Below the pieces are notes generated by a model. The model made no database searches, was not told where the DNA came from, and saw only the letters and a list, made by a program, of their open reading frames with translations. A stretch of 63,010 nt of DNA from positions 1 to 63,010 of IMG/VR virus record IMGVR_UViG_3300025301_000010, one strand, 5' to 3'. Below, piece after piece: positions 1 to 63,010 of the stretch. Each line of letters starts with the position of its first letter. The first letter of the stretch is position 1. The DNA comes from a virus (taxonomy: Duplodnaviria; Caudoviricetes). The translations under genes were made by a program, and so were the position numbers.

Positions 1-43
1 GATTATGGTAGAGGACCAAGCGACTCATAAAGGAGGGTACGAT

Positions 44-520
44 ATGAAACGCGTAGGGAGGCGACCAACGCCCACGAACATCAAACTGGTGCAGGGGAAC
101 CCCGGCAAGCGCAAAATCGGCGCAGCCGCGGGCGAGCCTATACCTGCTATCAGGCTGCCACGTCCGCCGGATGGCCTGAGCGCTGCGGCCGTGAAGGAAT
201 GGCGTAGGCTCGGCAAACAGCTCGCAGAGCTCGGCCTGATGTCTCCTTTGGACCGAAATGCTTTCGCGACCTATTGCGAGGCGTGGGCGCAGTGGCTGGA
301 CGCGACCCGAGAGATACAAAACAAGGGGATGCTTATCCGAGCGCCGAGCGGGTATCCTATGGTCAACCCTTTTTTTACGATCGCGCGGCAGTGTGTCAAG
401 CAGATGGACAGCCTTCTCGCCGAGTTTGGGCTAACGCCGGGCGCCCGGACGCGCCTAAAGGCGGCGCCGCCGAAGGCTCCGTCGACGGTCGGGCAGTTTG
501 GTGTTGCTCGTGCTTCTTGA
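44..520 (+). CDS. terS: Terminase small subunit, P27 family (module A)
   Basis: GRRPTPT..K...GNPGKR N-terminus, D..AF..YC.AW, NP and EFGLTP.AR motifs; GGAGG RBS before ATG 44; overlaps terL. Confidence 0.93.
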   Translation: MKRVGRRPTPTNIKLVQGNPGKRKIGAAAGEPIPAIRLPRPPDGLSAAAVKEWRRLGKQLAELGLMSPLDRNAFATYCEAWAQWLDATREIQNKGMLIRAPSGYPMVNPFFTIARQCVKQMDSLLAEFGLTPGARTRLKAAPPKAPSTVGQFGVARAS

Positions 521-2222
521 TCCCGTGACCACGTACGCAGACCGCGTGTTAGCCGGGGACGTCGTTGCCGGGCGACCGGTCCGCCAGGCTGCGGCGAGGC
601 ATTTGCGTGACGTTAGCTCAGCCAAGGCTCGCGGTTTAGTCTGGCTCGGCGACGAAGTTGGGCATCTCTTGCAATTCTTTCCGGCGCTCTTGCGTCTCGA
701 CGATGGCGCGCCGTTTGTTCTCCAGCCCGCGCAAGAGTTTATTATCGGCAGCCTGCTCGGCTGGTATAACGCCGACGGCTCGCGCCGGTATCGGACCGCG
801 TACGTCGAAATGGCTAAAGGCGCGGGTAAAAGTCCGCTCGGGGCGGCACTTGGGCTGTATGGCCTGCTGGAGGATAATGAGCCTGCGGCAGAGATTTATA
901 GCGCCGCGGTGACGCGTGACCAGGCGGGCATAGTATTTCGCGACGCGAAAAACATGGTGCAGCAAAGCCCTGAGCTTTCTGGGATCGTCGACCAGAATAT
1001 AAGCAATCTTGCCGTTCTTGAAACGCGGTCTTTCTTTCGGCCGGTGAGCTCGGAGCATAAAAGTCTGGATGGCAAGCGCGTACATATGGCGCTGGTCGAT
1101 GAGATTCACGAGCATCCGTCGCCGCTGGTGGTGGACAAGATGCGCGCCGGAACAAAAGGGCGCACACGCGCCCTGATTTTCGAGATCACTAATAGCGGAT
1201 ACAGTAAGACCTCCGTCTGTTGGGACCATCATCAGTACAGCCTCCAGGTTGTGTCCGACGCCGTGCCTAACGACTCGTGGTTTGCCTATGTGGCCTCGCT
1301 CGATGCCTGCGAGGTCTGCTATGCAGCGGGCTTTATGCAGCCGAACGGCGAGTGTGCAGATTGTGACAATTGGCGTGACGAGGGGGTGTGGCAGAAGGCG
1401 AACCCGCTGCTTGACGTCAGCGTGTCGCGTCGGTATCTGCGCGAACAGGTCGCGGAGGCGGACGGGATACCGGCTAAGGAGAATCTGGTTAAGCGTTTAA
1501 ATTTCTGTCTTTGGACCGAGCAGTCTGTGCGCTGGCTGCCTATGGATAAGTGGGACGCCTGCGCCGGTGAAGTTGAGCCCGCCGCGCTCGCGGGCCGCAG
1601 CTGTTATATCGGAGTGGACCTCAGCTCAACGACTGATTTATCCGCAGTCGTGTTACTCTTCCCGCCTATGGTGGCGGGTGAGCCGTATAGTATCCTCCCG
1701 TATTTTTTTACACCGGCGGACAACGTGGCCCGTCGCCGTGAGCGTGATCGGGTGGACTATCAGACGTGGATTGATAGTGGCGCTATGATCGCGACGCCGG
1801 GCACGGTGGTGGATTACGACCAGATCCGAGGCACGCTGAACGAGTTGGCCGAGACGTACGACGTTATCGAAGTGCCGATTGACCGCTGGAATTCGACGCA
1901 GTTGCAAACACAGCTGCTTGGTGATGGGTTTGAGGTCGTGCAGTTTGGCCAGGGGTTCGCATCCATGAGCGCCCCGACGAAGCGCTTGGAGGAACTCGTT
2001 TTGGGCGCATCATTGGCGCATGCGGGGCACCCTGTGCTGCGCTGGATGGCTTCGAACGTCGCGGTGCAACAGGATGCGGCGGGCAACATTAAGCCAGATC
2101 GTAAGGCGAGCGAAGAGAAGATTGACGGGGTCGTCGCGCTGGTGATGGCGCTGGGGCGCTGTATGGTGCAGCCCCCAAAAACCGACTCGATTTACACGTC
2201 GAGAGGGCTGGTGACGATATGA
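498..2222 (+). CDS. terL: Terminase large subunit, Terminase_1/HK97-like (module A)
   Basis: Walker A MAKGAGKS, Walker B LVDEIHEH, ITNSG coupling motif, nuclease GVDLSSTTDLSA and KIDGVVA; exact start uncertain (498/501/510). Confidence 0.96.
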   Translation: MVLLVLLDPVTTYADRVLAGDVVAGRPVRQAAARHLRDVSSAKARGLVWLGDEVGHLLQFFPALLRLDDGAPFVLQPAQEFIIGSLLGWYNADGSRRYRTAYVEMAKGAGKSPLGAALGLYGLLEDNEPAAEIYSAAVTRDQAGIVFRDAKNMVQQSPELSGIVDQNISNLAVLETRSFFRPVSSEHKSLDGKRVHMALVDEIHEHPSPLVVDKMRAGTKGRTRALIFEITNSGYSKTSVCWDHHQYSLQVVSDAVPNDSWFAYVASLDACEVCYAAGFMQPNGECADCDNWRDEGVWQKANPLLDVSVSRRYLREQVAEADGIPAKENLVKRLNFCLWTEQSVRWLPMDKWDACAGEVEPAALAGRSCYIGVDLSSTTDLSAVVLLFPPMVAGEPYSILPYFFTPADNVARRRERDRVDYQTWIDSGAMIATPGTVVDYDQIRGTLNELAETYDVIEVPIDRWNSTQLQTQLLGDGFEVVQFGQGFASMSAPTKRLEELVLGASLAHAGHPVLRWMASNVAVQQDAAGNIKPDRKASEEKIDGVVALVMALGRCMVQPPKTDSIYTSRGLVTI

Positions 2223-2341
2223 GGGCCAAAAATGCCGTTTATCCTAAACATGGCACTATCAAGGGCGTACGTACGTGTACGCGTCAGATCGTGCCGTCTT
2301 GGGCCTTTTTTGGGCGTCTTTTTTTCTGGCGGCCCGCAAAA

Positions 2342-2734
2342 ATGCTGCTTTTTGTGCTGGTCGCGCTCGGCTGGGGTCTTTCTGTCGCTGCCTCACACGT
2401 GGCGGCACATCCGACGCCGTGTACCGTCCAGGTGGTGCGAGTTATCGATGGGGATACGCTGGTCGTGAACGAAATGGTCTTGCTAGGGCCACACATGGTC
2501 CCGTGGATCGGGCCGGTCTCGGTGAGGTTGCTACGGGTTGACACCCCCGAGCGTGGCCAGCCGGATTTCGAGCGGGCGAAAGCGGTCCTTGTCGCGCTGA
2601 CCAGGCGCCCGATTGGCCTGGAAATCTTTAAACGCGATTCTTTCGGCCGTTGGTTGGCCGAGCTATATACCTGTACCGGTGCGGGCCGTAAAAATATCAA
2701 CGATAGGCTGCGGAAAGAGTGGCCCGCGCGATGA
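2342..2734 (+). CDS. Thermonuclease (SNase-like) with signal peptide
   Basis: VRVIDGDT, VRLLRVDTPE, RDSFGRWLA motifs; hydrophobic N-terminus from ATG 2342; paralogue at 60190-60585. Confidence 0.85.
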   Translation: MLLFVLVALGWGLSVAASHVAAHPTPCTVQVVRVIDGDTLVVNEMVLLGPHMVPWIGPVSVRLLRVDTPERGQPDFERAKAVLVALTRRPIGLEIFKRDSFGRWLAELYTCTGAGRKNINDRLRKEWPAR

Positions 2735-2949: not shown

Positions 2950-3132
2950 TACCTCGCCGTGTCAGGGGGTATCGAGTACGCGCGGGCAGCCTTCGCCGTT
3001 TTGGCGAGCGTAGCCCACGCGGTTGACATATAGCGGCGGGCTACGCGCCCGCCGTGGCGTTACCACACGCCAGACGATAAAAACGGCGAGAGTAAGTAGC
3101 CGCAACAGGTAATGACTGTTTGCGGCTTTTTT
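2944..3132 (+). ncRNA. Candidate structured sRNA or leader upstream of the portal gene
   Basis: Stems 2945-2955/2966-2976, 2992-3002/3080-3090, 3008-3016/3038-3046 and 3055-3060/3067-3072; bounded by a promoter and a terminator. Confidence 0.5.
3098..3132 (+). terminator. Intrinsic terminator-like hairpin
   Basis: AGCCGCAACAG...CTGTTTGCGGCT followed by a T run. Confidence 0.65.
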
Positions 3133-3141
3133 GCGTGCAAA

Positions 3142-4422
3142 ATGGGCTGGATACAAAAAATACTAGGAACCGTACGGGCCGGATCTCCGAGTCCGATTGA
3201 TGATTTTTGGTATCGCCCGGCACAGCTGGGGACGGCGGGTCAGACCGTGACGGCTGACACCGCGCTCCAGTCGTCGGCGGTGCTGGCGTGTGTGGTTTTG
3301 CTATCTGAGACGGTCGCAAGTTTGCCGCTGCCGATTTACCGGCGACAGCCGGACGGCGGGAAGGCGCGCGAACCGGGCCATCCGTTAGCCGATATTTTAA
3401 GTCGACGCCCTAATACATATATGAGTGCGTTTGAGCTGCGTCAGCTAATGATGCAACACCTTCTGTTACGGGGCAACGCGTATGCGGTGATCGTTCCTGG
3501 CGCGCGCGGCTCGGTCGACCAGCTGATACCGCTCGCGCCGGACCGGATGACCGTGACAGGTAGCGACGAAGGCTTAGTGTATACGTACCGCGACAGCGCG
3601 GGGACTGACCTCACCTACACGCAAGGTGAAATTTTTCACCTGCGGGGGCCGATGCTGTCTGACGGTGGGATGGTGGGGCTGTCGGTGATCGACTATGCGC
3701 GCGAGACAATTGGCGGGGCGCTAGCGGCCCAGGCGTACGGAAATCGCTTCTATCAAAACGACGCGCGGCCAGGTGTGGTCTTGACGCATCCTGGGCAGCT
3801 CGGCGCCGAGCCGCAGCAACGGCTGAAGGAAGGGTGGCAAAAAGCGCACGGCGGTAACCATCAGCACGGGGTCGCGATCTTGGAAGAGGGGATGGAGGTC
3901 AAGACCCTATCGGTGACGCCGGAACAGGCTCAGTTTTTAGGGTCGCGACAGTATGCCGTCATCGACATCGCGCGTCTTTTTCGCGTCCCGCCCCATCTCA
4001 TCCAGTCGCTCGAAAATGCGACGTTTTCGAATATCGAACACCAAGGTTTAGACTTTCTTACCCACACGCTGCGCCCGTGGCTCGTGCGGTGGGAACAGGC
4101 GATCAACCAACAGTTGATGGTCGCGCCCGATACTTTTTTTGCGGAACATGCGGTTGAAGGGTTATTACGCGGCGACACGAAGGCTCGGTATGACAGCTAT
4201 GCTATCGCGCGCCAGTGGGGTTGGCTTTCTGTTAACGACATTCGGCGATTAGAAAATTTAAATCCAATTGACGGCGGTGACACTTATTTGCAGCCGCTCA
4301 ACATGCAGGACACCGCCACGTCGTCAGCCGCTCCCGTAGGGGATGCGCTGGTCGTGCCGGGACGCGCATTGTCGGCGGAACCGAAGGCCGGGCAAAGGGA
4401 AAATGATGGGACATTACATTGA
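3142..4422 (+). CDS. Portal protein, HK97 family
   Basis: A..SAV.ACV..LSE.VASLPL, L.RGNAY, IFHLRG, IARLFRVPP and NATFSNIE motifs; start moved to ATG 3142 because the ORF-track start lies inside the terminator. Confidence 0.96.
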   Translation: MGWIQKILGTVRAGSPSPIDDFWYRPAQLGTAGQTVTADTALQSSAVLACVVLLSETVASLPLPIYRRQPDGGKAREPGHPLADILSRRPNTYMSAFELRQLMMQHLLLRGNAYAVIVPGARGSVDQLIPLAPDRMTVTGSDEGLVYTYRDSAGTDLTYTQGEIFHLRGPMLSDGGMVGLSVIDYARETIGGALAAQAYGNRFYQNDARPGVVLTHPGQLGAEPQQRLKEGWQKAHGGNHQHGVAILEEGMEVKTLSVTPEQAQFLGSRQYAVIDIARLFRVPPHLIQSLENATFSNIEHQGLDFLTHTLRPWLVRWEQAINQQLMVAPDTFFAEHAVEGLLRGDTKARYDSYAIARQWGWLSVNDIRRLENLNPIDGGDTYLQPLNMQDTATSSAAPVGDALVVPGRALSAEPKAGQRENDGTLH

Positions 4423-5314
4423 CACACTGATTTATAGTCGGCCTTGGGCGATCCTGCCGGATAAGCTCGCGGACATCGATCGTGCGGTCGCACTATGGGC
4501 CGCCGGGGCTGGACCCGAGGTCACTGAGTGGGGGGCGCAAGCCGCACCCGCAGTGACACGCGCAAATCGAGTTGCGGTGATTCCGGTTTTCGGCACGATT
4601 AGTCAGCGGGCTAACCTTGTGACACATGCGAGTGGGGGCGTGAGTACAGACCAACTCCGGTCGCAGTATCGCGACGCGCTTGCCTCTCGTGATATCGGGA
4701 CAATCGTGCTTGACGTCGATAGTCCAGGCGGGGCGGTGCAGGGCGTGCCTGAGCTTGCGCAAGAGATTTACCGCGCGCGAGGTCAGAAGCGCACAATTGC
4801 TGTAGCCAATTCACTGATGGCTTCCGCTGCCTATTGGCTCGGGTCTGCCGCTGATGAAATCGTTATGACTCCCTCTGGTGAAGTGGGTTCAATCGGCGTT
4901 GTCGCTGTCCACCGCGAACAGAGCCAGGCGGAGACGGCGTCGGGCCTTACGACGACTATTATCAAGGCGGGTAAATACAAAGCCGAAGCAAACGCTAGCG
5001 AGCCGTTGGCGCCGTCGGCTCGCGCTCACTTACAAAGTATGGTCGACACGTTTTATCAACTCTTTGTTCACGCTGTCGCAAAACACCGGGGCGTCTCAGT
5101 CGCTGACGTGCGTGGCGGATTTGGGGAGGGGCGTACGGTCGTCGCTGGTGAGGCGCTGGGCCTTGGCATGGTGGACCGTGTTGACACGCTCCCTGAAGTT
5201 CTGGAAAAACTCGGCGCTGCGGTGCCGACTCGCAGTTTGTCGAAAAAATCTGTCCGGACGCGGGTGCGGCTCGCGCGGGCACGTAGAGAGAATGGAGGTA
5301 GGCAAGATGGATAA
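4403..5314 (+). CDS. Prohead protease, S49 (SppA/ClpP-like)
   Basis: LDVDSPGG, MASAAYWLGS, GSIGV and AGKYKAE motifs; lies between portal and capsid. Confidence 0.93.
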   Translation: MMGHYIDTLIYSRPWAILPDKLADIDRAVALWAAGAGPEVTEWGAQAAPAVTRANRVAVIPVFGTISQRANLVTHASGGVSTDQLRSQYRDALASRDIGTIVLDVDSPGGAVQGVPELAQEIYRARGQKRTIAVANSLMASAAYWLGSAADEIVMTPSGEVGSIGVVAVHREQSQAETASGLTTTIIKAGKYKAEANASEPLAPSARAHLQSMVDTFYQLFVHAVAKHRGVSVADVRGGFGEGRTVVAGEALGLGMVDRVDTLPEVLEKLGAAVPTRSLSKKSVRTRVRLARARRENGGRQDG

Positions 5315-6620
5315 GTTGAAAGAGTTACAAGAGCGGTCGGCGGACCTACATCGGAGCGTGCAGGTCGCATGGGCCGCCGTAGAGGCAGCCGACGGGGACG
5401 AGACCAGCGAGGATGAGATGGAAACGTTATTGTCTGCCTACGATGAGGCAAAGGTCGAGCTTGACCAAGGTCAAGCCACGCTGAAGACGGCGGAAGACCG
5501 GCAGGCGCAAATGAAAGCCCGACTTTCAGCGGCCCGCGAGAGTCAGCCGTTAATGGTGCCACGCCGGTCGGCACGCATCGACGTGACCCAGCCGGTGGAG
5601 GATCGGCCGTTTGACAGTTTCGGTCAGCAGCTCCAGGCGGTCTATCAGGCTGGGCTGAGCGGCGGGCTGGTTGACGACCGCCTGGTGTCACTCCAGGCAG
5701 CCTCCGGCATGTCACAAGGGGTGGGATCAGATGGCGGCTATGCTGTGCAGACTGATTTCCTCTCGGACGTTTACACACAGGCATACAACACAGGCGACAT
5801 TTTATCGCGAGTCCGGCGTCTGCCGCTGTCGGCAAATAGCAACAGCATGAAGATTCCCGCCGTTGACCAAAGTAGTCGCGTGACGGGTAGCCGGTGGGGC
5901 GGGGTGCAAGGTTATTGGGTGGCCGAGGGCGGCTCGGTGACGGCAAGCAAGCCTAAGATGCGGCGTATCGATTTAGAGCTCCACAAGGTCGCCGCGTTGG
6001 GCTACATGACGGATGAACTTTTAGCCGACGCGAGCGCGCTTGAGAGTATTATGTCACAAGCCTTTGCCGAGGAATTGGTGTGGCAAATTGAGGAAGCGAT
6101 CGTCAATGGCGACGGAGCCGGGAAGCCGTACGGCATTATGAGCTCGGCGGCGCTGGTCAGTGTGACGCGGAAGTCGTCCGGCAACGATATCGAAACTGAA
6201 GATATCGTCGGCATGTGGGCACGCCTCCACGGGGGCAGCCGACAGAACGCAGTCTGGCTTGTCAATCAGGACGCCGAGCCTGACCTATACGTAATCACGC
6301 TCGGCAACCAGCCGATGTGGCTGCCCGCTGGCGGCATCAATGAGGCGCCGCGGGCGCGTTTAATGGGCCGCGACGTTATCGAAAACGAGCACTGTGCCAC
6401 GAAAGGGACAACCGGTGATATTATCTTGGTGGACTTGTCGCAGTATATTGTGATCGATAAGGCTGGGCCGAGTTTAGCAACGTCCGCGCACGTGAAATTC
6501 TCCGAGGACGAAATGGCTTTCCGCTTGACGACGCGAGTCGATGGGCAGCCGATGTGGAACAAGGCGGTGACGCCTGCCAAAGGATCGAACACCCAATCGC
6601 CCTATGTGGTGCTAGCATAG
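5307..6620 (+). CDS. Major capsid protein, HK97 fold with coiled-coil delta domain
   Basis: GGAGGT RBS before ATG 5307; DGGYAV, WVAEG, TDELLADA, NGDGAGKPYGI and F..DE.AFR...RVDGQP motifs. Confidence 0.95.
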   Translation: MDKLKELQERSADLHRSVQVAWAAVEAADGDETSEDEMETLLSAYDEAKVELDQGQATLKTAEDRQAQMKARLSAARESQPLMVPRRSARIDVTQPVEDRPFDSFGQQLQAVYQAGLSGGLVDDRLVSLQAASGMSQGVGSDGGYAVQTDFLSDVYTQAYNTGDILSRVRRLPLSANSNSMKIPAVDQSSRVTGSRWGGVQGYWVAEGGSVTASKPKMRRIDLELHKVAALGYMTDELLADASALESIMSQAFAEELVWQIEEAIVNGDGAGKPYGIMSSAALVSVTRKSSGNDIETEDIVGMWARLHGGSRQNAVWLVNQDAEPDLYVITLGNQPMWLPAGGINEAPRARLMGRDVIENEHCATKGTTGDIILVDLSQYIVIDKAGPSLATSAHVKFSEDEMAFRLTTRVDGQPMWNKAVTPAKGSNTQSPYVVLA

Positions 6621-7149: not shown

Positions 7150-7719
7150 ATGTTGACGCTTGTGACCCCACCGACGGTCGAGCCGGTGAGCGTGCAAGAG
7201 TGCAAGGATTGGCTCCGCGTCGACCACTCTGCGGACGACGCGCTTATCCTTGCACTCGCTACCGCAGCACGTCATTATTGCGAGGACCGACAGAACCGGG
7301 CCTACTGTTCGCAAACGTGGAAGGCGTCGCTCGACGCGTACCCTGCCGCGTTTTCGTTGTGGCGTAGCCCCGTGGTGTCGGTTACTAGCGTGCAGTACGT
7401 GGACACCGACGGCGCGACTCAGACGCTGTCGTCGTCAGAATATACGCTGGACGCACTGAGCGAGCCGGGGCGTGTAGTGCCTGCGTATAATGCGAGCTGG
7501 CCGTCCATTCGCGCCGTGCCGAATGCGGTGACGCTGACGTTTGTGTGTGGATATGGCGCGGCGGCTGATGTGCCTGAGATTTTTAAATCCGCGATAAAAA
7601 TGTATGTCGCGGATGCCTACGAAAATCGAGAAAGTATTGTTGTTGGCCCCTCTGTAAATCGGTCGCCGATTACGGTTGACATGATGTTGCAGCCGGACCG
7701 GCTCATGGTGGTCTCGTAA
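7150..7719 (+). CDS. Head-tail connector (gp6 / phiE125 gp8-like)
   Basis: EPVSVQECKDWLRVDH..DDALI, V..F.CGYG and HY/AYENRE motifs. Confidence 0.9.
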   Translation: MLTLVTPPTVEPVSVQECKDWLRVDHSADDALILALATAARHYCEDRQNRAYCSQTWKASLDAYPAAFSLWRSPVVSVTSVQYVDTDGATQTLSSSEYTLDALSEPGRVVPAYNASWPSIRAVPNAVTLTFVCGYGAAADVPEIFKSAIKMYVADAYENRESIVVGPSVNRSPITVDMMLQPDRLMVVS

Positions 7720-8033
7720 TGCAAGCGGGCAAACTGAATCGCCGTGTCACGGTGCAGCGCGTGTCAGAAACGCAAAACACTTTTGGTGAGGTGACCGAGA
7801 CATGGACACACCTGGTTTCGACGTGGGCACAATGGCTGCCCCTGAAGGGGACCGAGAAGTTTACGGCGCGCCAGTTTGCGCCGGAACTGTCCGGTGAATT
7901 TAGGATGCGATATCGCGAGCTGACGCCTAAGGATCGTATAGTCATGGACGGCCGCATCTTTGACGTAGAGGGCGTGATCGATGTCGATGACCGGCGCCGC
8001 GAATTACGGTGCACAGTCGAGGAGCTTGTCTAA
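7719..8033 (+). CDS. Head closure (head-tail joining) protein
   Basis: AGKLNRRVTVQ and WA...PL.G.E motifs; position after the connector. Confidence 0.9.
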   Translation: MQAGKLNRRVTVQRVSETQNTFGEVTETWTHLVSTWAQWLPLKGTEKFTARQFAPELSGEFRMRYRELTPKDRIVMDGRIFDVEGVIDVDDRRRELRCTVEELV

Positions 8034-8569
8034 TGGCTCTCGCCTCGTCCATGACTGTTGACGCTAAAGCGTTGCACGACCAATTTGCTGCCATTAAAAA
8101 AGGCATGTCAACGGCAACGCTGCGGCGGGCTGTGCGTGCCGGTGGAAAGGTCGTGCAGAAAAAAGCCGCACAGAATGCCCCGGTGGCGAACGCACGCGCC
8201 CGGAAGCGCGTGACCTTCAAGGATGGATCCAAGAAAAAACGACTGTCCAAAAGTATCCGCGTTGTGAACCAAAAAGGCGCACGTGGTGCGACCGGTACGG
8301 TCAAAGTCGACATCGGCTGGCTGCGGTCCGCGTTCCACGGCAACATGATCCACGCGGGCGCGAAATCAGCGACGTACGGCCCGTCGAAGCTGGCGTTTAA
8401 AATGCCGAAAGGCGGGAAGTATCCGTTTGTGCGCGGCAGGATTACAGTCCCGCGCCGCCCGCCTGACAAGTTTTTACAGCGGGCATTTAACAGCGAAAAA
8501 AGCCGAGCAAACCAAGAAATCCGGCGTGTATTAGACCAGGCGCAACAGCGGGCGGTGGCGTCCTCGTGA
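8033..8569 (+). CDS. HK97 gp10-like neck protein
   Basis: LRRAVRAG..V...A..NAPV and C-terminal FLQRAF; basic; syntenic. Confidence 0.8.
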   Translation: MALASSMTVDAKALHDQFAAIKKGMSTATLRRAVRAGGKVVQKKAAQNAPVANARARKRVTFKDGSKKKRLSKSIRVVNQKGARGATGTVKVDIGWLRSAFHGNMIHAGAKSATYGPSKLAFKMPKGGKYPFVRGRITVPRRPPDKFLQRAFNSEKSRANQEIRRVLDQAQQRAVASS

Positions 8570-8988
8570 GCTTTGTCGAGGAAGGATTGTACGGTTTTTT
8601 GCGCGCTCAGCCGGGACTCGCTGGCTTAGTGGGAGACCGTATTTATCCGCTTGTAATTCGACAGTCCGTCGGCGATAAGGCGAGCGTTATGCCCGCGGTG
8701 ACATACCGGCGGACCGGGACGACATACGAAGACCCGACGCTGACCGGCATTTCGAACCTCTACACGGCGGATATCGACATCGAGTGCTGGTCGGATAGTT
8801 ACGCCGAGGCGAAGCAGGTCGCGGAGGAAATCGAGGTTTCTCTTAATGGGAAAACAGACGCTATTCTGGGGCCGTTTGTTGTCGGCCAAGCGCTCCAGCG
8901 CAACTTAGCCGACCAATACGAAGTCGACTTAGATTTGTTTTTTATTGTCGGCAGCTGGACGTTTTCGGCGTGCCGACAGCAGGAATAG
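8566..8988 (+). CDS. Tail terminator, DUF3168-like
   Basis: LVGDRIYP, PAVTY and IECWS.SY.EAK motifs. Confidence 0.85.
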   Translation: MSFVEEGLYGFLRAQPGLAGLVGDRIYPLVIRQSVGDKASVMPAVTYRRTGTTYEDPTLTGISNLYTADIDIECWSDSYAEAKQVAEEIEVSLNGKTDAILGPFVVGQALQRNLADQYEVDLDLFFIVGSWTFSACRQQE

Positions 8989-8997: not shown

Positions 8998-9504
8998 ATG
9001 GCATTGACGGGCGAAGTGATTTTTAAGGTGAACGGCACATATACAAGCTCGAAGGATTTGTCGACCGTGACAGATCCGTTTGCGCTCAGCAACAACATCG
9101 CGATTTCCAGTGGGACTGGGGCCAATCAGGCGGACTTACTCTTTCATGACCAACGCACGATCGCTGCGTCGTCGAACGAGGACCTTGACCTCGCGGGCGG
9201 TCTGACCGACAGTTTCGGCGCCACGCTGACGTTTGTGAAGATCAAAACGATTTATGTTTCTGCGGCCAGCGCGAACACTAACAGCGTGGTCGTGGGAGGC
9301 GCGGCGAGCAATCAGTTTATCAACTGGGTGGGCGATGCGACCGACAAGATCAATATTTTGCCGGGCGGGGCCTTCATGATTTGCGCACCCAGCGCGGCCG
9401 GATATGCCGTTACGGCGGGTTCGGGTGACTTGCTACGTGTTGCAAATAGTAGCTCGGGGACGACGGTCACCTATAACATAGTGGTCGAGGGCACGTCCGC
9501 ATAA
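8998..9504 (+). CDS. Conserved beta-rich putative virion protein
   Basis: GTGANQAD, LDLAG.LTD.FG..LTF..IK motif; strong RBS; sits between terminator and tube. Confidence 0.6.
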   Translation: MALTGEVIFKVNGTYTSSKDLSTVTDPFALSNNIAISSGTGANQADLLFHDQRTIAASSNEDLDLAGGLTDSFGATLTFVKIKTIYVSAASANTNSVVVGGAASNQFINWVGDATDKINILPGGAFMICAPSAAGYAVTAGSGDLLRVANSSSGTTVTYNIVVEGTSA

Positions 9505-9649
9505 ACTTGCGCTTGCTTGGCGGCTAGGGTCGCGCCCGAAACGCCCCACGACCGAGCCGGGGGGCTTGCCGCCAATATGTTCACGCTCGTAACTCGCTCG
9601 GGAACAACTGTATTTGATGTCACTTCAAGTGACGTCAGGAGGTCACAAA

Positions 9650-15992: not shown

Positions 15993-15994
15993 GT

Positions 15995-17293: not shown

Positions 17294-17306
17294 GAGGAGC
17301 AAGCCC

Positions 17307-17726: not shown

Positions 17727-17735
17727 CCGCCGCGC

Positions 17736-20441: not shown

Positions 20442-20450
20442 GAAATAATC

Positions 20451-21151: not shown

Positions 21152-21170
21152 CCGGTGAGACGGCCCGCGG

Positions 21171-21359: not shown

Positions 21360-21434
21360 CGTTAAGAGATATACGTCTAGGCGGACCCAGTCAAGCCCCG
21401 CTGAGCCGCAGTAGGTGCGCGCTGCGTAAAGGTG

Positions 21435-23223: not shown

Positions 23224-23237
23224 CGCCCGCGGAATTC

Positions 23238-41612: not shown

Positions 41613-41616
41613 TGTC

Positions 41617-43870: not shown

Positions 43871-43886
43871 CGTAGACTCCTCTTGT

Positions 43887-53779: not shown

Positions 53780-54273
53780 TAGCCACGCCCTCGCTCTATT
53801 TTCGCACGGAGTTCGTCCACGGCATCGTGGGCAGCGAGCCGGATAAAGCCGTCAGGCGCTTGATTACTATACCCATCTTCCAGATCTGCCATGTATTCAA
53901 TATCAGAGACGAATTGGATCTTTGCCCCTTCCAGGTAGTACAAATCCCCGATAGCAGATCGAGCCTCACTACGTGCTGCATGATAACTAATGGGACTACT
54001 GCCTGTCCGGTCAGTCTCAACGCCGCCGCCAAAGACCTCGATATTGAGCAGGTCATCCCCACTCCCAGCCCCCACATCAATATACCACGACTGCTGGGCG
54101 TTCCCAGAAAACTCGTAGTCTGTTCCTTTGACGTTGTATGGGGTCCGTGACACGATCTTCCCATAGAGGTCTGCTGCCGTGAGACCTGCCTGCCGCCTGA
54201 CCCCACCGGGTAAATCTTTCGCCTGTTTCAAGAGACGTTCCGTGGCTTTTTTAAAATTATCAAATTCGATCAC
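53779..54273 (-). CDS. Neck protein, HK97 gp10-like
   Basis: IV.RTP....G.A..SW and Y...LE.GYS.QAP.G. Confidence 0.8.
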   Translation of the reverse strand: MIEFDNFKKATERLLKQAKDLPGGVRRQAGLTAADLYGKIVSRTPYNVKGTDYEFSGNAQQSWYIDVGAGSGDDLLNIEVFGGGVETDRTGSSPISYHAARSEARSAIGDLYYLEGAKIQFVSDIEYMADLEDGYSNQAPDGFIRLAAHDAVDELRAKIERGRG

Positions 54274-55047: not shown

Positions 55048-55434
55048 TCACACCAAGACCACATGACATGACCAAATCGCGTCTCCGCCGAGCAAGTGGG
55101 CCTCGCGGATCTGCCACGTCACGCCGTCGTCCTCAATGCGATCTTTATTCGGGCGAATACGCACCCCTGGCAGATCTTCGGCCAGTAGATAAATCCGCCG
55201 TTCCCGTCCCGTGTGGGGGGCCGTTGTCGTGCTCTCGTCCCCGTCCTGCCGGGCAGTCGCTCGCATCATCCGCACGGTCCAGGTCGATTCACTGCGCGTG
55301 ACATTGCCCGTCGTGGCGTTATTCGCGCCCACCACGACTCGGCGGAACACGGCAGCTGAGACATGGCCGCGATGTGCGGTAAAGACACGCCGCGCTGCCG
55401 CTTGGGTGCCGCTCTGCAACCCTAATAAGCTCAT
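55048..55434 (-). CDS. Head closure protein (module B)
   Basis: Y/N..TG, P...DRI..DG.TW.I pattern; follows the adaptor. Confidence 0.7.
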   Translation of the reverse strand: MSLLGLQSGTQAAARRVFTAHRGHVSAAVFRRVVVGANNATTGNVTRSESTWTVRMMRATARQDGDESTTTAPHTGRERRIYLLAEDLPGVRIRPNKDRIEDDGVTWQIREAHLLGGDAIWSCHVVLV

Positions 55435-55994
55435 CCTTGGATAATCCCCACGCTATGCTGCCCGAGTTCGATATACCCAAAGGGGGCAAACAAGGCTTGG
55501 ACATCCGGCGTGACCGATCCACGCAGCGGGTCCGTGCGATCTAGGGGGTTATTCGCAACTTTCACGCGACTCGTCTGTTGGTCGATGCGATCTTCCCGTT
55601 CCGCGACATCAACCGGGTCGTAGATCTCCCCGTCGATGCCCACGCTCCGTGACGCCACGCGCAGCATTGCGCCGACCATTTCTTTCTGCCCGGACTGCAC
55701 GTCCGTGGGAATGGTGGTGTAATCGACGGAGTTTCGGTTGCGGTCAATCAGACCGGACCTTGGGAACGACAAGGACTGGGTGGTCTCTACGAGACTGCCC
55801 CACCAGACGCCCCAGCGCGTCATGATCTCGGTTGCCCGTACCATGTACCGCAAGAGGGTGGCTTGGTCCACGTCTTCCGCAAGATCCGTATATAATGTCG
55901 AATTGAGGAGCCAGTCCCGTTGCTGCGCCTCCGTGACGAAGGTATTCGCACCGGCCACCACGCTCCCCGTTTCTACCACAAGGGTAATCGCCAC
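55431..55994 (-). CDS. Head-tail adaptor, DnaT-like family
   Basis: LVVETGS.V.GANTFV, QSLSFPR and IP..V...Q.E. Confidence 0.85.
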   Translation of the reverse strand: MAITLVVETGSVVAGANTFVTEAQQRDWLLNSTLYTDLAEDVDQATLLRYMVRATEIMTRWGVWWGSLVETTQSLSFPRSGLIDRNRNSVDYTTIPTDVQSGQKEMVGAMLRVASRSVGIDGEIYDPVDVAEREDRIDQQTSRVKVANNPLDRTDPLRGSVTPDVQALFAPFGYIELGQHSVGIIQG

Positions 55995-56204: not shown

Positions 56205-57314
56205 TTATCCGGCAATCCGACACGCCAACTCACGACGCACCAGCGTGGCACCGTACAGCACGTCAAAGCTGTACCGGGTCCGTTTGTGCTCGCGTGAGAC
56301 TTCCAGCCGAAGCGTCAATCCGCTCACCGGATCAACGGCGGTTCGGGCAATTCCGTTCAGGCCATCTTCAATGCCAGCCAACGGGCGCGTTGCAAACGCG
56401 AACGCATCGCGGTGGAAGAGCAGGTTGACAGCGTGTGTCGCTTTGAACGTCACGGCTGCGTTATCGGCCCAGGCCACTTTGGCCGCCGGGTACATGGTGA
56501 TCACCGTGGCAGTCGAAGACGCCACCACATAGGTCTGCGTATCGCCCGCGACGGTAAACACATCACCTTCCGCTGGAGCGGTGCCGCCACCATCCCAGGT
56601 CAGGGTTGTATCGCCCACGGACACGGAGGCGTCGTTCACCAAGATGGTGCCGGTGCCGGTGTTCGTGTGGGTCGGCGCGTTCTGGTCCATGAACCAATCA
56701 GCTCCAACCTTGGTGCCGATATTGCCGCGCATGATCACGCCAGCACCGCCGCCAAAACTCGCGTCTTGGAACGCACGGAGCAGGAGGGCGTTGCCTTCCG
56801 CCGACGGGTCGAGAACAACCCGACGATCATCCAGCGGGGCGAGTTGGGTGTTGAGTGTTTTCCGCGCATTGGTGTACTCGGTCAACGCGGACGCGAAGGG
56901 AGTCGTCCCGGCAACTCCTGCGTAGCCGTAAATACCTTTGTATTTGCCAAGAATGTAGCTATCGATGTTGTTCGACAGCGCCTTGATGGCTTCCGACGCT
57001 TGCATCGGGATGGTGCCAGCCATGACTTCGCCCAGTTCCTTGTCAGACAGATGGAACGGCGCTTCATACCACTGGTCCAAATTCACGCTGACGGATGTCG
57101 GCGTTACGTCTGCGGTTGAAGGCGGGGTCGCCCCAGGGCTGACCGCCGCAGCGGTGATCGAAGAAGGAATCGGAATATCGACTGCCTTCCCGCGTTCTCC
57201 AGCGATGGATTCGTAGCCTCGATTCACGAGGCGGGGCATAATGGAATTCTCGCGGAGGGCCAATAAGCCTTGCGCGAGGAGTTTTGGGGTGACTTCGGTC
57301 AGGGTATTCGCCAT
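56205..57314 (-). CDS. Major capsid protein, P22 coat family
   Basis: MANTL, LRENSIMPRLVNR, G..V.IP, inserted GDVFTVAG domain, FHRDAFAFA and DVLYG. Confidence 0.93.
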   Translation of the reverse strand: MANTLTEVTPKLLAQGLLALRENSIMPRLVNRGYESIAGERGKAVDIPIPSSITAAAVSPGATPPSTADVTPTSVSVNLDQWYEAPFHLSDKELGEVMAGTIPMQASEAIKALSNNIDSYILGKYKGIYGYAGVAGTTPFASALTEYTNARKTLNTQLAPLDDRRVVLDPSAEGNALLLRAFQDASFGGGAGVIMRGNIGTKVGADWFMDQNAPTHTNTGTGTILVNDASVSVGDTTLTWDGGGTAPAEGDVFTVAGDTQTYVVASSTATVITMYPAAKVAWADNAAVTFKATHAVNLLFHRDAFAFATRPLAGIEDGLNGIARTAVDPVSGLTLRLEVSREHKRTRYSFDVLYGATLVRRELACRIAG

Positions 57315-57490: not shown

Positions 57491-58243
57491 TTACGAGACC
57501 GTTATTTGTCCTTTCGCAATCGCTTCAAGATTCCGTCCGAATGTCAGGGGATCGTTCGCATCGATTTTCTGCGACTGAATCCCTTCGTTCGCGGCGTTTG
57601 CGCCCTTCGAGCGCTTGAACAAATGCGGTGCTTGTGGCAGCAGTTGTTCCTGTATCCAAATTTGTGGGGTCATTAATTTCGTCGGTTCCCGTTCGCTGTA
57701 GCGCGGGTTCCCCTGGTCATCGACAGCCACGGTTGCCCCATCGACAAATCGCAATTCTCGTTCCGCACGGAGCTGCACATCCGTCACACCGGAGTCCGAG
57801 ACACCGGTTTCCGTACACGCCGAGGCGACAGAGGCTTTCACCCGCTGTTGATCCAGGTCCCGCAGGGCCTGTGTCCGCTCTGCCTCCAGTTCCTTTTCTC
57901 TGGCACCCGCCTGTTCTCGGTACGTGTCGAATTGGGAGCGGAGTTGTTGGACTTGCGCTTCCAATTCCTTACTGCCGTTGGTGCTCTGTTGCTGGATCTG
58001 TTCTTGCATCTTCCGGTACTGATCTGGATCGATTTCCCGTTTACTATCGATCTCGTCCTTCAGTTTCGCAACGGTGGAGTTCAGATCGCGGTTCGAATTC
58101 CGAAACTCATTCAACCGGGTGCCATCGACAAAGCCTTGCACCTGCAAGACGTACTCGCCGCTGCGCTCATCTTTAACCACACTATCCTTGGCCCACTCTG
58201 GGACCGATTGTTCGTCCGGAAACCTAGAACTAATCGCCATCAT
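57491..58243 (-). CDS. Capsid scaffolding protein
   Basis: G.YVLQV.G, EFR..N, long coil, APHLF and C-terminal IAKG. Confidence 0.82.
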   Translation of the reverse strand: MMAISSRFPDEQSVPEWAKDSVVKDERSGEYVLQVQGFVDGTRLNEFRNSNRDLNSTVAKLKDEIDSKREIDPDQYRKMQEQIQQQSTNGSKELEAQVQQLRSQFDTYREQAGAREKELEAERTQALRDLDQQRVKASVASACTETGVSDSGVTDVQLRAERELRFVDGATVAVDDQGNPRYSEREPTKLMTPQIWIQEQLLPQAPHLFKRSKGANAANEGIQSQKIDANDPLTFGRNLEAIAKGQITVS

Positions 58244-59696
58244 TAACTCCTTCCACTCCCGTTATACTACGATTTGCCTCTGATGGGGGGGCGGTTGCTC
58301 CCCGCACCGCATCCAACTCCTGCTCCACTGTCTTATCAGGGCGCAACGCTTCGCCCTTTTTCATGTTAAAAAGAAGGGTTTCGTGGGAGATTGCCCCGTT
58401 TTGCCAGGCAGATACGAGCTCGCGCAGGGCATTCGGGTCTAATCCGACTGGGACAAAGTCTTTTTCCATCACAAAATGTTGATCCGCCACAAAAGCCGGG
58501 CTTTCTCCCGCCCACCAGAGCATCCATTGTAAGACTTGGGTCATCCCCTTCTCGTGGGCGTTCGCAATGTCCACCAACGTCGCATTTTCGCCGCTGGCAC
58601 GCAGCATATGGGTCTCGGTCGCTTCCACGAGCTTCCGTGGCGTCTCCAGCAGTCGCGATCCCAATAACGCCATGTTTTCTCGGCGCATATTCAGCGGATC
58701 GCGGAGTGCAATGAGCGATTGCGGGTCCGTTCCGGCGATTTCCATCTTTCCTTGACTGCCCAGGATGATGGCTTTGTCCCCGCCGAGCCGAATCGCCTGA
58801 ATGTTGCCTTTATCGACGTCCCGTTTGGTCGCATCGTCAAAAATGGCGAGTGTAGGGTCCGAGAGGCGGTAGCGTGCGCGTTCATACGACGCTGAGGCGC
58901 GGTAATGGGCCATGTTTTCGTTGACAAGATCAAGTATTGGCGGCGTTTGGATGTCCGAGGACGGATGATCGCCCGATTGGAAGAGGTAAAAAGGAACGAA
59001 ATCCAGCCGCTCGCCATTGCGCGTGGGAAATTCACGCAGCGATTCTTCTTCCTGATAGCGTTCGATGGCCTGATTCTCTGTGGGCAGCTCCAAAAAGACG
59101 CGTTTGATCAGCAAACCGTCCGCATCGAGGTCATAGACCTGGACCCGGCCGCGATACGTCACCTGGAATTCGTCCTGGGGGTCCATCTGCGGGATAGCAT
59201 CACGGAGGCGGACTTGCCGGATTCGGCGTTGTCCGTCTGGGCCGACATCATCCTGTATCCCGAGGATTTGTTCTGCCGTCCAGTTGGTCGCATAGGGAAT
59301 TTGTTCCGGTCCGCCGTCACCCTTGCCGACTAACACGCCGTGGTGGCCGATCAAAATCTGTTCGCGCCCCACTTGCTGCGAGAAGCGCAGAATATCTGTG
59401 CCTTGCCGGTCAAAATTATTCAGCCGTTCCGCGAAGCGCGGCGTTAATGGCGGGACCATGGGAGGGCGGCGGAAGAGCGTGCCGGTGAGACCGCGCAGGG
59501 TCCGTCCCGTCGCGCCGAAAAAGGTCGCGGACTCCAGATAAAATCCGTACACCGCATCGTCCTGCATGGCAGGGGGGCTGGGGAGATACCGCACTCCCCG
59601 CTGTTTGACGGCATCTTGTCCCGCATCCGCATCGCGGCACCGCTGCCAGATGGGAAGCCAATAATATACGTTTTTATCAGGTGTCTGGACTGGCAT
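58230..59696 (-). CDS. Portal protein, DUF4055 family
   Basis: W...RD...G...VK.....YLP, Y..A.F...T, PP..DL...N..HY..SA.Y and W..G.IS.ET. Confidence 0.9.
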   Translation of the reverse strand: MPVQTPDKNVYYWLPIWQRCRDADAGQDAVKQRGVRYLPSPPAMQDDAVYGFYLESATFFGATGRTLRGLTGTLFRRPPMVPPLTPRFAERLNNFDRQGTDILRFSQQVGREQILIGHHGVLVGKGDGGPEQIPYATNWTAEQILGIQDDVGPDGQRRIRQVRLRDAIPQMDPQDEFQVTYRGRVQVYDLDADGLLIKRVFLELPTENQAIERYQEEESLREFPTRNGERLDFVPFYLFQSGDHPSSDIQTPPILDLVNENMAHYRASASYERARYRLSDPTLAIFDDATKRDVDKGNIQAIRLGGDKAIILGSQGKMEIAGTDPQSLIALRDPLNMRRENMALLGSRLLETPRKLVEATETHMLRASGENATLVDIANAHEKGMTQVLQWMLWWAGESPAFVADQHFVMEKDFVPVGLDPNALRELVSAWQNGAISHETLLFNMKKGEALRPDKTVEQELDAVRGATAPPSEANRSITGVEGVNDGD

Positions 59697-59698
59697 AA

Positions 59699-60193
59699 TT
59701 AGGCCCTCAGTTTGTAAAACGTGTGATCGCCAATCACCGCTGTGATCTTTTGCTCATTCGCCCACCGGGGCAGTGATCCATTCCGCCATTTTTTGACCAG
59801 CGGAACATTGAGGTAGTGGTCGGCCCCGTGCGTGGGGTCGAGATGCGGCTCCCCGCTATAGTCTCGCGCCGCCGCGCCATCGGTACGCCATACGTCCCAC
59901 ACGCGCACCCAGTGGACAAAATCCTGCCAGTTTTCTTTGTGGACCAATCGGTCCTCTGACCCCACGGCTCCCAACACCCACTGAAAATTCGGGTCCACTT
60001 GGCGCGTCCAGCTAAATTGGAGGCGTTGGAGAATCACGCCGCGCATCGTATCCGGCCAGCCGCGCCGGTGGGAACGATTATAGACCACCCAATCGACCGC
60101 CTCCATGCCCAGCAGTCCTTGGTTCCGCGCCTCACACAAAATATTCGCGGTGCGGAGATTGACGGCAGACCATTGATGTATCGGACTACTCAT
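59699..60193 (-). CDS. Endolysin, SleB/Hydrolase_2 cell wall hydrolase
   Basis: EAR.Q...G..AV..V..NR, QFSW, DPT.GADHY and IG.H.FY. Confidence 0.9.
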   Translation of the reverse strand: MSSPIHQWSAVNLRTANILCEARNQGLLGMEAVDWVVYNRSHRRGWPDTMRGVILQRLQFSWTRQVDPNFQWVLGAVGSEDRLVHKENWQDFVHWVRVWDVWRTDGAAARDYSGEPHLDPTHGADHYLNVPLVKKWRNGSLPRWANEQKITAVIGDHTFYKLRA

Positions 60194-60585
60194 TTTGTAT
60201 ATATCCATCCTTGCTCGATCATCATGTCGTTAATCGAGCGCTGTACGATACCGGTTTCACCTTGCATACACAGCGAGACTTCGGCCAGCCACCGTCCAAA
60301 TGAATCCCGCTTGGTGACGGCAAGGGCGACCCCTTTGGAGACCAATGTTTCCAGCATCTTTTTGGCGCGTTGATAATCCGGCTCCCCACGCTCCGGCGTA
60401 TCCACCCGCAACAGGCGAACCGAGGTGGTGGAGATAATCGGCAGATGTCCTTCCCCGAAGATCACGAGTTCGCGGATCTTAAACGTATCGCCGTCAATGA
60501 CGCGCACCACCGGAATGGTGCAGCCCGGTTCATGTGCTAGAGCCGTTGTCGCCAGAGCAGCCAGCCAAAAGACCGCACACAACAC
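60190..60585 (-). CDS. Thermonuclease (SNase-like) with signal peptide
   Basis: VRVIDGDT, SVRLLRVDTPERG, KRDSFGRWLAE; ALA-HE cleavage-like site. Confidence 0.85.
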   Translation of the reverse strand: MLCAVFWLAALATTALAHEPGCTIPVVRVIDGDTFKIRELVIFGEGHLPIISTTSVRLLRVDTPERGEPDYQRAKKMLETLVSKGVALAVTKRDSFGRWLAEVSLCMQGETGIVQRSINDMMIEQGWIYTK

Positions 60586-61152: not shown

Positions 61153-61442
61153 GGGAACGATACCTCTATCGCGGCCCGCGCACAGTCAAAGCGGAGATAC
61201 ACGCCGTTGTCTTCGCGCACTTTACGGGCACGCGCAACGAGGAGTGAATCGCCGGAACAGACGCTTTCCTGGATCTTCCGGAATGCCGCCATATACGCCG
61301 CCTGCGCCACCGTGCCGCGCCCGTCCACTTGGGACCAGCGATCAATTACGGCGCTACAGCCGACTAAGACCATCGCGACAATCGTCGCACATACGATCAC
61401 CCGTATGAGCATCCTGCTCTCTTGCGCTTCGTTCACATGCAT
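61149..61442 (-). CDS. Putative lipoprotein (spanin-like)
   Basis: Lipobox-like VLVGC after a hydrophobic stretch. Confidence 0.5.
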   Translation of the reverse strand: MHVNEAQESRMLIRVIVCATIVAMVLVGCSAVIDRWSQVDGRGTVAQAAYMAAFRKIQESVCSGDSLLVARARKVREDNGVYLRFDCARAAIEVSFP

Positions 61443-61454
61443 ATTCGCCGCTCC

Positions 61455-62993
61455 TCACCACTGCACCGACACGATCTGGGCGGGACGGAATCCGCCGCTG
61501 ATGTCTGCAAATGCCATGACACAGGCATCGCCCATGTCCGTCGATCTTTTCAGCCGCTTCCGCACGTCGTCCTTGCTTTCAATCGTAATGCCGCCGAGCG
61601 TATTACGGTATTGTGGGGCCGTCAGGTCCATCTTCAACTGCGGGTCCGGGGGCAAGGCTACTTGCTCCGTCCCGCTATCGGGGTCCAGCAGCTCCCGCAT
61701 CATCCACCACAACTCCGCCCGTTTGTTCCGCATTTTCAGCAGTCCGCTCTTGTCGGTCTCGTCGGATCGCGCTGAGGCGACCACCGGATTGACGTGCGAA
61801 AAGCCGTCCGTGCCTAGCAAACTGTCATACACTGAACTGCCGACCCCGATAATGTCCAGGTTAATAAGCGCCTGATCTTGGTACACATCGGCAATGTATT
61901 TCACCACCGCTGGCCCGTCCGGCGTCTCACTCCCGGCATAGGTAATTAACTCGTCCATCCACGGCCCATGCCGTTTGGCAATCACCGTGGCGTCCCGGCC
62001 ACCGCGACTCGGGTCCACCCCCATCGCATGCAGGGGATAGCCGTCCGGATTATGCGGCTTCCACCGATCCATGGCGGCTTGGACCCAGGCACTCGGAATC
62101 ACCTGATATTCCCCGTCACTGCGGCTAAAGGTCCAGATGCCTTTCAGCAACTGGCTCCGCAACGGTTCGGGCAGGTTCATCAGGTTGGCTTCGTAATCCG
62201 TCCCCGCTAAATATTTATTATCTTTCAACCGGCCAGGGATAAACGTCCGACTGCGGGGGGTGAGGCGTTCTTCCTCGCCTGTGGCGGTGGTAAAATCATA
62301 CGGGTCGCCATCCGGCCGTTCCACCTCTTCGCCGTCTTCCATGCAGTACCAGCGGAGTTCGCCGGGGGCTGCTGGATTCGGATGCTCGGGATCAAGCCAC
62401 GGAGCCCAGCGCTGAATGACCCACTCCCCGGCTGCATCAGGATTCGGGTTCGTTGCCCCGATAATGCGGACCCGCTGCGCTGGCGATGTGGACCGTGCCC
62501 AGCCGATCACCTGGGTGTATTGCCGCTCCTCGAATTCCGTGAGCTCGTCAAAAGCAAACAGGTCGTGTGACTGGCCTTTATGCTTCTTCCAGTCGTCACT
62601 TTCCTTCATCGCCGCCAACTGGATCATCCGCCGTCCCGGCACATCGCGCCAAAACAACCGTTGGCCGTTCCACTTCGGCTGTTCCCGTCCACTGCCCGTC
62701 AATGGGTCCAACAAATCATGCAATTCATCAATCATGCCGTTCAATTGCGTCAGTTCACGCCGGAAAATCTTTGTCCGCTTATGCGCCGTGAGGGCGAGCC
62801 CGAGAATTAAACTGGACTTCCCCGCTCCCGCCGCCCCGCCGTACAGCGTTTCAAATGCCGCGCTGTGGTACGCCTGCGCCTGGGGACCGTCCTGGGGCTC
62901 CCATAACGGCGCGCTCACTTCCGTGTCTACCGCGACCAGGTTGGCAAGAGAATGATACTTATTGCGGCCCGGTTGGAGTTGGACGGAGGACAT
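61455..62993 (-). CDS. terL: Terminase large subunit (module B, Terminase_6-like)
   Basis: YGGAAGAGKS, FDELTEF, ATNP, GVDPSRGGRD and RSTD.GDA. Confidence 0.96.
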   Translation of the reverse strand: MSSVQLQPGRNKYHSLANLVAVDTEVSAPLWEPQDGPQAQAYHSAAFETLYGGAAGAGKSSLILGLALTAHKRTKIFRRELTQLNGMIDELHDLLDPLTGSGREQPKWNGQRLFWRDVPGRRMIQLAAMKESDDWKKHKGQSHDLFAFDELTEFEERQYTQVIGWARSTSPAQRVRIIGATNPNPDAAGEWVIQRWAPWLDPEHPNPAAPGELRWYCMEDGEEVERPDGDPYDFTTATGEEERLTPRSRTFIPGRLKDNKYLAGTDYEANLMNLPEPLRSQLLKGIWTFSRSDGEYQVIPSAWVQAAMDRWKPHNPDGYPLHAMGVDPSRGGRDATVIAKRHGPWMDELITYAGSETPDGPAVVKYIADVYQDQALINLDIIGVGSSVYDSLLGTDGFSHVNPVVASARSDETDKSGLLKMRNKRAELWWMMRELLDPDSGTEQVALPPDPQLKMDLTAPQYRNTLGGITIESKDDVRKRLKRSTDMGDACVMAFADISGGFRPAQIVSVQW

Positions 62994-63010
62994 CGTTATG
63001 CAGTCTACAC

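Follow-up and report, generated by a model that had tools for sequence, protein, structure and literature searches.

A published simulation study of viral metagenomes describes chimeric contigs as arising from sequences conserved between related genomes (PMC3901335). The object of the present analysis, the IMG/VR record IMGVR_UViG_3300025301_000010, is a single contig of 63,010 bp with no N, and the window that we analyzed is this entire record. It resembles chimeric viral-metagenome contigs in that two co-occurring genomes are joined via a near-identical stretch, here within a C5 cytosine DNA methylase gene, in that their depth ratio is inconstant and in that they assemble separately elsewhere. 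We conclude that the record is very probably an assembly chimera, made of two different phages of siphovirus type that co-occur in the same marine samples, with phage A being the window from 1 to ~27.5 kb and phage B the window from ~28.2 to 63 kb. Unlike chimeric strain mixes, the two halves have unrelated terminase, head and neck genes, and only the methylase, a small open reading frame (ORF) and tail-tip genes are common to both; because A and B share so few genes, the chimera resembles a 'two-virion' genome and not a strain mix. The observations that carry this conclusion are a step in sequencing depth, a left junction of B's own, a hybrid methylase gene and shorter A and B contigs in other assemblies.

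Two full virion modules are present, as a first-pass annotation made from the sequence alone had stated, and Pfam and PHROG scans place them at 1-21 kb on the + strand (A) and at 36-63 kb on the - strand (B) (Table 1). These scans covered nearly all ORFs of at least 250 amino acids (aa) lying outside longer ORFs, long alternate-frame ORFs being excluded; an Rfam scan gave no family. Half A follows the gene order seen in temperate siphoviruses of the HK97 type that infect Proteobacteria and carry a P27-family TerS (TerS, TerL, portal, S49 protease, capsid, neck, tube, G/GT chaperones, tape measure). Its nearest relative is Halomonas phage vB_HmeY_H4907 (40.5 kb), with 44% TerL identity at 95% query coverage. 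Genomes of 34-45 kb predominate among the relatives listed, with one of 59 kb. Half A differs from these phages in having no DNA-level match and no integrase or lysis genes in the 28 kb that are present. Half B corresponds to siphoviruses that combine a P22-type coat and scaffold with a DUF4055 portal, with TerL, portal, scaffold, P22-fold coat, siphovirus neck, tube and a long ORF of tape-measure size; its nearest portals, from Pseudanabaena phage Pan1 and Dinoroseobacter phage vB_DshS_R26L, are only 28-31% identical. A search of the literature for genuine phages that carry two structural modules yielded nothing relevant and supports no claim either way.

In public sequencing data, the segment 20500-30400 was found almost entirely in 14 marine-metagenome runs (0.93-0.97 of sampled words) and partly in 10 more; the 14 runs are all of one year and may come from a single campaign. 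Depth was compared over 17500-37400 (19.9 kb) using Logan contigs of 4 of these 24 runs, X4, X6, X15 and X18. The A side in X4 is made up of contigs of 5196 and 5389 bp (17500-21749 and 21941-27329) at depths of 18.4 and 18.7, and the B side of five contigs covering 28262-37400 at 8.3-9.25. The same two A contigs recur in X6 at 21.8 and 21.3, together with one 9607-bp B contig over 28179-37400 at 189.3. X15 holds five listed A-side contigs of 181-268 bp (depth 2.3-3.5) and two B-side contigs of 4570 and 15007 bp (9.4 and 8.3; 27238-31461 and 31501-37400), and its bins show an unattributed spike of 29.9 at 24804-25467, where X15 contigs have loose ends. For X18, a run from another study of which 43% was read, perfect or near-perfect fragments are listed only on 27286-37400, and its zero bins on the A side mean that no contigs of at least 90% likeness lie there.

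The A:B depth ratio is ~2.2 in X4, ~0.11 in X6 and <0.4 in X15, a change of ~20-fold that goes in both directions, and the step always falls within the methylase gene (27237-28298). A single replicon is expected to give equal depth and a constant A:B ratio, and neither was found; a coverage step of this kind had been named in the first-pass annotation as one result that would speak against a single molecule. Among the contigs listed for the four runs, none crosses 27329-28262, the breaks lying at 27329, 27552, 28167 and 28179.

Contigs at B depth join position 21970 directly to 27238, skipping the 5.27 kb of early genes of A. This joint has a depth of 7.85 in X4 and 159.4 in X6, while in X15 the contig carrying the B methylase shows, at its 5' side, a loose end that does not match the window. 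The presence of the joint at B depth means that the methylase of B is not preceded by the primase gene of A. In X4, the depth of the joint explains essentially all of the B depth, leaving ~1x or less for the arrangement in the window. A continuation of A past the methylase was not recovered; only unassigned loose ends at 28192 and 28234 were seen. The small ORF 21705-21965 is likewise present in B in copies of its own, which in X6 contigs at depths of 179-191 show 7 and 2 differences.

The methylase gene itself is composite. A-depth contigs enter it as far as 27329 with the letters of the window. From 27238 to 27551 the window is A-type, and the B copy differs there by 6 + 21 substitutions and two 1-nt indels (~91% identical); no B depth falls on the letters of the window type between 27351 and 27551. 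The following 616 nt (27552-28167) are identical to the B copy. A 398-bp contig in X4 (depth 14.8) matches 27552-27945 exactly save for an insertion of CGGC after 27801, which is absent from the window, X6 and X15 and which alone would shift the methylase frame. Judged from these variants, the gene in the window begins as A-type and has become B-type by 27801. The A-type 5' part and the B-identical part that follows make the window gene a hybrid. The assembler would accordingly have crossed from A to B via the methylase stretch identical in both phages, somewhere in 27552-28167 and probably in 27552-27801, although the exact switch point is one that we infer. The CGGC variant could be the true variant of A, possibly with a compensating change further on, or could come from a third genome.

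The hybrid gene is intact. Matches to M.HhaI and other PDB entries cover residues 2-166, and the translation holds FSGVGGG, GFPCQPFS and ENVPGL, which correspond to the N-terminal C5-methyltransferase catalytic motifs FxGxG, PCQ and ENV. The C-terminal half, where motifs IX and X would be expected, has no Pfam or PDB match; its frame 0 is open, aligns with five relatives and ends ...RLKALGNGQVP, and frame +1 is conserved there too. We considered a frameshifted methylase, given a 320-aa ORF in frame +1 with motif-like strings, and ruled it out: the five relatives are open in frame 0 over the whole gene, and blastx aligns both ends of the gene in frame 0.

The overlapping frame +1 ORF (27310-28272, +, 320 aa) has a C-terminal string ...QLNPxWVEWLMGWPxGWT... 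that is kept in all six relatives compared, five of them distinct (L052 duplicates L051). In the methylase relatives, frame +1 contains only 4-7 stops as compared with 11-28 in frame +2. This conservation may simply follow from conservation of the DNA, and PDB searches with both frames did not settle the C-terminal half.

In 10 of 12 metagenome loci, a block near the 3' end of the gene (28147-28270, ~70-120 nt) reaches 80-93% DNA identity, as compared with ~67% elsewhere in the gene. Summed contig depth spikes over the block (190x in X4, 502x in X6 and 193x in X18), which is flanked on either side by loose ends of many contigs. Where amino acids are identical, codons are also identical in 62-79% of cases in the 3' block and 42-47% in the N-terminal domain, in a small sample. 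The block looks like a community-wide recombination joint between modules, and assemblies break there as well. The 12 loci come from a metagenome scan with the methylase, and the only near-identical piece among them is the 236-nt end of one 4.4-kb contig, L058, whose methylase 3' end is 97% identical to window 28041-28276 before it diverges into different sequence. After the methylase 3' end, L058 carries ~ten iteron-like repeats (A)AA(G)CGCCGACAAA and a GC-alternating tract (300-430), and 3.1 kb downstream an 82% copy of the small ORF (21777-21977). Both shared pieces thus recur in a third genome, arranged differently.

Independent assemblies contain the two halves in shorter contigs. Exact-protein look-ups, which return contig counts, the longest contig and source labels, give 12 contigs for the 869-aa JGI/IMG gene call of an A tail protein (100% identical over those residues), the longest being 28,200 bp, a length equal to the boundary coordinate. 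For the A tape measure, 35 contigs of up to 32,586 bp carry the M-start form (NCBI, Logan, ENA) and 22 contigs of up to 63,010 bp the V-start form (JGI/IMG); variants of the A exonuclease are on contigs of up to 32,528 and 32,586 bp. For B, TerL is found on 40 contigs (longest 44,143 bp) and the M-start form of the adaptor (Logan, ENA) on 43 (longest 44,138 bp). Two proteins, the A tape measure and the B adaptor, have a start codon that tells JGI/IMG apart from the other sources, and for both of them the length of 63,010 bp is confined to the JGI/IMG start form; rows with an ATG start combine sources. Seven of eight exact A proteins have NCBI among their sources, the eighth having an NCBI variant in its cluster, as compared with none of nine exact B proteins, among which are YqaJ and the replication initiator immediately right of the join; some NCBI record therefore holds A without B. 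The expectation that each half assembles on its own is borne out indirectly, A in contigs of at most 32.6 kb and B in contigs of ~44.1 kb, both known from sizes and source labels.

Because these maximum contig sizes recur, the true sizes are probably ~32.5 kb for phage A and ~44.1 kb for phage B, and the former is in keeping with the cultured phages nearest to A, most of which have 34-45 kb. Each half would then be a truncated genome, which accounts for the single TerS, in A, and the single cell-wall hydrolase, in B. Both had been noticed in the first-pass annotation, the hydrolase as an endolysin, with truncation offered as one possible reason; that guess fits two incomplete genomes. The contig starts 43 nt ahead of the ATG of TerS-A (position 44), which is backed by a ribosome-binding site (RBS), and ends 17 nt upstream of the ATG of TerL-B, a gene on the - strand. 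The idea that 63010 might join 1 was not borne out: the record has no terminal direct or inverted repeat of at least 10 nt and no circular closure.

Relatives at larger distance are consistent with separate phages. Megablast against 50,697 phage records, a set that may lack entries close to the window, gave no match for any third of it. IMG/VR scans returned 33 loci for TerL-A (best identity 55%) and 17 for TerL-B (best 44%); no contig is in both lists, the relatives being too distant to test linkage directly. A B-type gene occurs in 0/33 of the TerL-A loci and an A-type gene in 0/17 of the TerL-B loci, while an A-type primase homologue is found in one TerL-A locus and DnaB or Mom-like homologues in two TerL-B loci. 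An exact 36-mer of the A primase gene has 0 matches in IMG/VR. A genome-contig scan with the A primase gave 60 loci at 29-55% identity, in metagenome-assembled genomes of many phyla; none is near-identical and no host call results.

Composition separates the halves. Among nine 7-kb chunks, all 16 within-half tetranucleotide correlations (0.64-0.81) lie above all 20 between-half correlations (0.43-0.63), with the split at 28 kb. In a sliding 8-kb comparison, the correlation dips to 0.57-0.64 at 27-29 kb, against a null of 27 positions in IMG/VR loci with a mean of 0.80 and a 5th percentile of 0.64.

A real single molecule, that is a co-integrate or 'dual-virion' formed by recombination in the shared methylase and existing, at least in the source sample, beside free A and B, is very unlikely in our estimate. 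All reading frames are intact, the at least 250-616 nt of A/B identity could support homologous recombination in a co-infected cell, and the tail-tip genes in common make co-infection of one host plausible. Such a molecule is expected to be bridged by contigs of independent assemblies, yet 27329-28262 is unbridged among the contigs listed and, in X4, where A is at twice the depth of B, the joined form can amount to at most ~1x. Outside the JGI/IMG record the longest contigs are those of A (~32.6 kb) and B (~44.1 kb). The co-integrate would moreover measure 63 kb or more, its two ends being open and showing neither terminal repeat nor circular closure, and this is far above the size of the nearest cultured relatives of A.

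Several points weigh against a chimera, and some of them favor the co-integrate. The depths are per-contig means of Logan contigs and not of raw reads or read pairs, and the depth test spans 19.9 of 63 kb in 4 of 24 runs, with three possible source runs outside it. The X6 depths alone are compatible with the 21x of A being attached to a part, a minority, of the 189x of B. We infer, and do not observe, that the CGGC contig belongs to A. The exact methylase protein of the window, with M- or V-start, is absent from the protein collection, so that its rarity is not usable as evidence, and the content of the 28.2-, 32.5- and 44.1-kb contigs is read from their size, source labels and the exact proteins that they carry. 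The sliding composition scan has a deeper dip (0.54) at 43-45 kb, beside the B tape-measure ORF; composition is therefore not decisive and alone would not place the join. In its narrower form, a real A-B co-integrate present as a minority molecule in the source sample and made by recombination across the methylase during co-infection, the proposal strikes us as highly improbable; if true, it would represent a natural intermediate with two complete, differently built virion kits.

We also weighed the idea that two adjacent prophages in a host chromosome (tandem or convergent polylysogeny) were excised as one viral region. Two virion modules with separate replication modules match the look expected of such a pair, and a mixture of host strains with one prophage, the other or both could make the depth ratio vary. 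The boundary, however, lies inside an intact gene matching two variants and not at an attachment site, and the B-depth contigs show another left neighbor of the methylase. The ORFs scanned include no integrase or host-like gene, whose absence between the modules the first-pass annotation had remarked on; nor did scans of the whole window find any att-like flanking direct repeats or tRNAs (ARAGORN). The terminase genes at both contig ends follow a virion-type and not a prophage order, and the record is classed as a virus record. We regard adjacent prophages as a most improbable origin.

Under the assembly chimera that we favor, the headline of a dual-virion element on one molecule is not supported: the depth step, the separate junction of B and the separate contigs elsewhere argue against it and support an assembly chimera, an alternative already offered in the first-pass annotation. 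What had been described as a single central early region is really two, each with its own replication genes, which meet at ~28.2 kb; the B early genes converge on the B late genes at 35.48 kb. The window holds two exonucleases and two replicative helicases, one of each per half, a doubling that two genomes would show. Tail length scales at ~0.15 nm per tape-measure residue, and the tails would be ~200 nm (A) and ~300 nm (B) on two separate phages.

The two modules had also been called unrelated, which does not hold for the distal tail genes. In blastp comparisons of A with B, 17262-17726 and 41175-41612 share 76% aa identity, 20451-20846 and 37389-37787 share 67%, and the fn3 proteins at 17736-20441 and 37797-41174 share 31-44%. 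The genes following the tape measures have N-termini that are 44% identical, and parts of the tape measures are 24-38% identical. At the DNA level, the tail-tip homology appears as inverted repeats I1-I3 of up to 238 nt at 84%. The remaining A/B gene pairs, including terminase, portal, capsid and neck, have no blastp match at an E value of 1e-3 or better. This sharing of tail tip, methylase and small ORF resembles mosaic module exchange (tail-fibre or 'moron' swapping), and suggests that A and B may have one host in common, or related hosts, and may trade modules. In exchange within one host the host is a given, whereas for A and B a common host is putative.

Taken at face value, the record would give catalogues a 63-kb phage in which capsid, portal and tail systems are each present twice, and such an entry would distort genome-size, completeness and taxonomy calls. 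Recognizing the chimera removes a false 'dual-virion' lead and leaves two uncultured marine siphoviruses without detectable similarity in head, neck and packaging genes, a clean example both of modules being shared by co-occurring phages and of the way in which this misleads assemblers.

Table 1. Features of the 63,010-bp window in order of position.
Feature	Coordinates	Strand	Basis
TerS-A	ORF 5-520, RBS-backed ATG at 44	+	Pfam Terminase_4 9e-29; P27-type
TerL-A	498-2222	+	Pfam TerL_ATPase 5e-25, TerL_nuclease 2e-47
Endonuclease	2219-2734	+	phrog_452 1.5e-12; weak SNase match below Pfam cutoff
Portal A	3112-4422	+	Pfam Phage_portal 2e-112
S49 prohead protease	4343-5314	+	Pfam Peptidase_S49 6e-32
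HK97-type capsid	within ORF 4878-6620 (580 aa)	+	Pfam Phage_capsid 2e-48, residues 286-568
Head-tail adaptor	7150-7719	+	PHROG
Head closure (Hc1)	7719-8033	+	PHROG
Neck1 A	8009-8569	+	PHROG
Tail terminator A	8566-8988	+	PHROG
Unknown PHROG	8998-9504	+	PHROG
Major tail protein A	9614-10081	+	PHROG
Chaperone pair A	10100-10513 and 10561-10887	+	PHROG
Tape measure A (1348 aa)	10888-14934	+	tape-measure PHROGs down to 3e-26
Distal tail/fibre genes A	14935-21151	+	tail-fibre PHROGs; Pfam fn3
Small early ORF (86 aa)	21705-21965	+	common to A and B; no Pfam or PHROG match
A early genes, absent from B	21966-27224	+	unknowns, exonuclease, primase/helicase
PD-(D/E)XK exonuclease	24376-25062	+	Pfam PDDEXK_1, PHROG exonuclease
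DUF3987-type primase/helicase	within 24774-27224	+	Pfam DUF3987, PHROG primase/helicase
C5 cytosine DNA methylase	27237-28298	+	Pfam DNA_methylase (PF00145) 6e-33, residues 1-170
B early region	28536-35487	+	Pfam, PHROGs; named genes plus unknowns
YqaJ exonuclease	28536-29492	+	Pfam, PHROG scans
RecT	29416-30210	+	Pfam, PHROG scans
Replication initiator/DnaD-like	30730-31521	+	Pfam, PHROG scans
DnaB	31487-32815	+	Pfam, PHROG scans
Mom-like DNA modification protein	32808-33269	+	phrog_1384, 4e-36
RusA	33992-34423	+	Pfam, PHROG scans
Metallophosphoesterase	35484-36380	-	Pfam Metallophos, PHROG
Small unknowns and distal tail genes B	35484-44618 region	-	homology to A tail tip in part
Distal tail gene B	37389-37787	-	homologous to A 20451-20846
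fn3 protein B	37797-41174	-	Pfam fn3
Distal tail gene B	41175-41612	-	homologous to A 17262-17726
Distal tail protein B (678 aa)	41617-43653	-	no family match
Distal tail gene B	43887-44618	-	grouped with the distal tail genes
Putative tape measure B (2008 aa)	44618-50644	-	position and 24-38% partial identity to that of A; no family match
Chaperone pair B	51074-51628 and 50658-51050	-	phrog_8233
Tail tube B	51759-52964	-	Pfam Phage_tube_2 4e-36
Tail terminator B	53321-53779	-	PHROG
Neck1 B	53779-54273	-	PHROG
Ad1 B	55431-55994	-	PHROG
P22-type coat	56205-57314	-	Pfam P22_CoatProtein 3e-22
Scaffold	57491-58243	-	PHROG 4e-20
DUF4055 portal	58230-59696	-	Pfam DUF4055 1e-21
Cell-wall hydrolase, SleB-type	59699-60208	-	Pfam Hydrolase_2 2e-14
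TerL-B	61455-62993	-	PHROG 3e-37; below Pfam cutoff

Further observations concern single genes of the two phages. The endonuclease of A sits between TerL-A and portal A and has a homologue in 0/33 of the A-type loci. The ORFs of the S49 protease and the capsid overlap by 437 nt in different frames; the GTG start of the capsid ORF at 4878 is probably called too early, because the capsid domain begins only at residue 286. In the chaperone pair of A, the -1 frame is open from 10429 and GGGAAAG lies at 10456, and the pair of B has AAAAAAC at 51083.

On the B side, the hydrolase is placed between TerL-B and portal B, outside any lysis cassette, and could be an oddly placed endolysin or a virion-associated lysin. 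The Mom-like gene adjoins DnaB, giving phage B a second modification gene besides the C5 methylase, and locus L047, with a TerL of B type, has a homologue of its product (53%) 3 kb upstream of that TerL. Within the 678-aa distal tail protein of B, four tandem 108-nt (36-aa) repeats occupy 43040-43471, with 67-70% identity to copy one.

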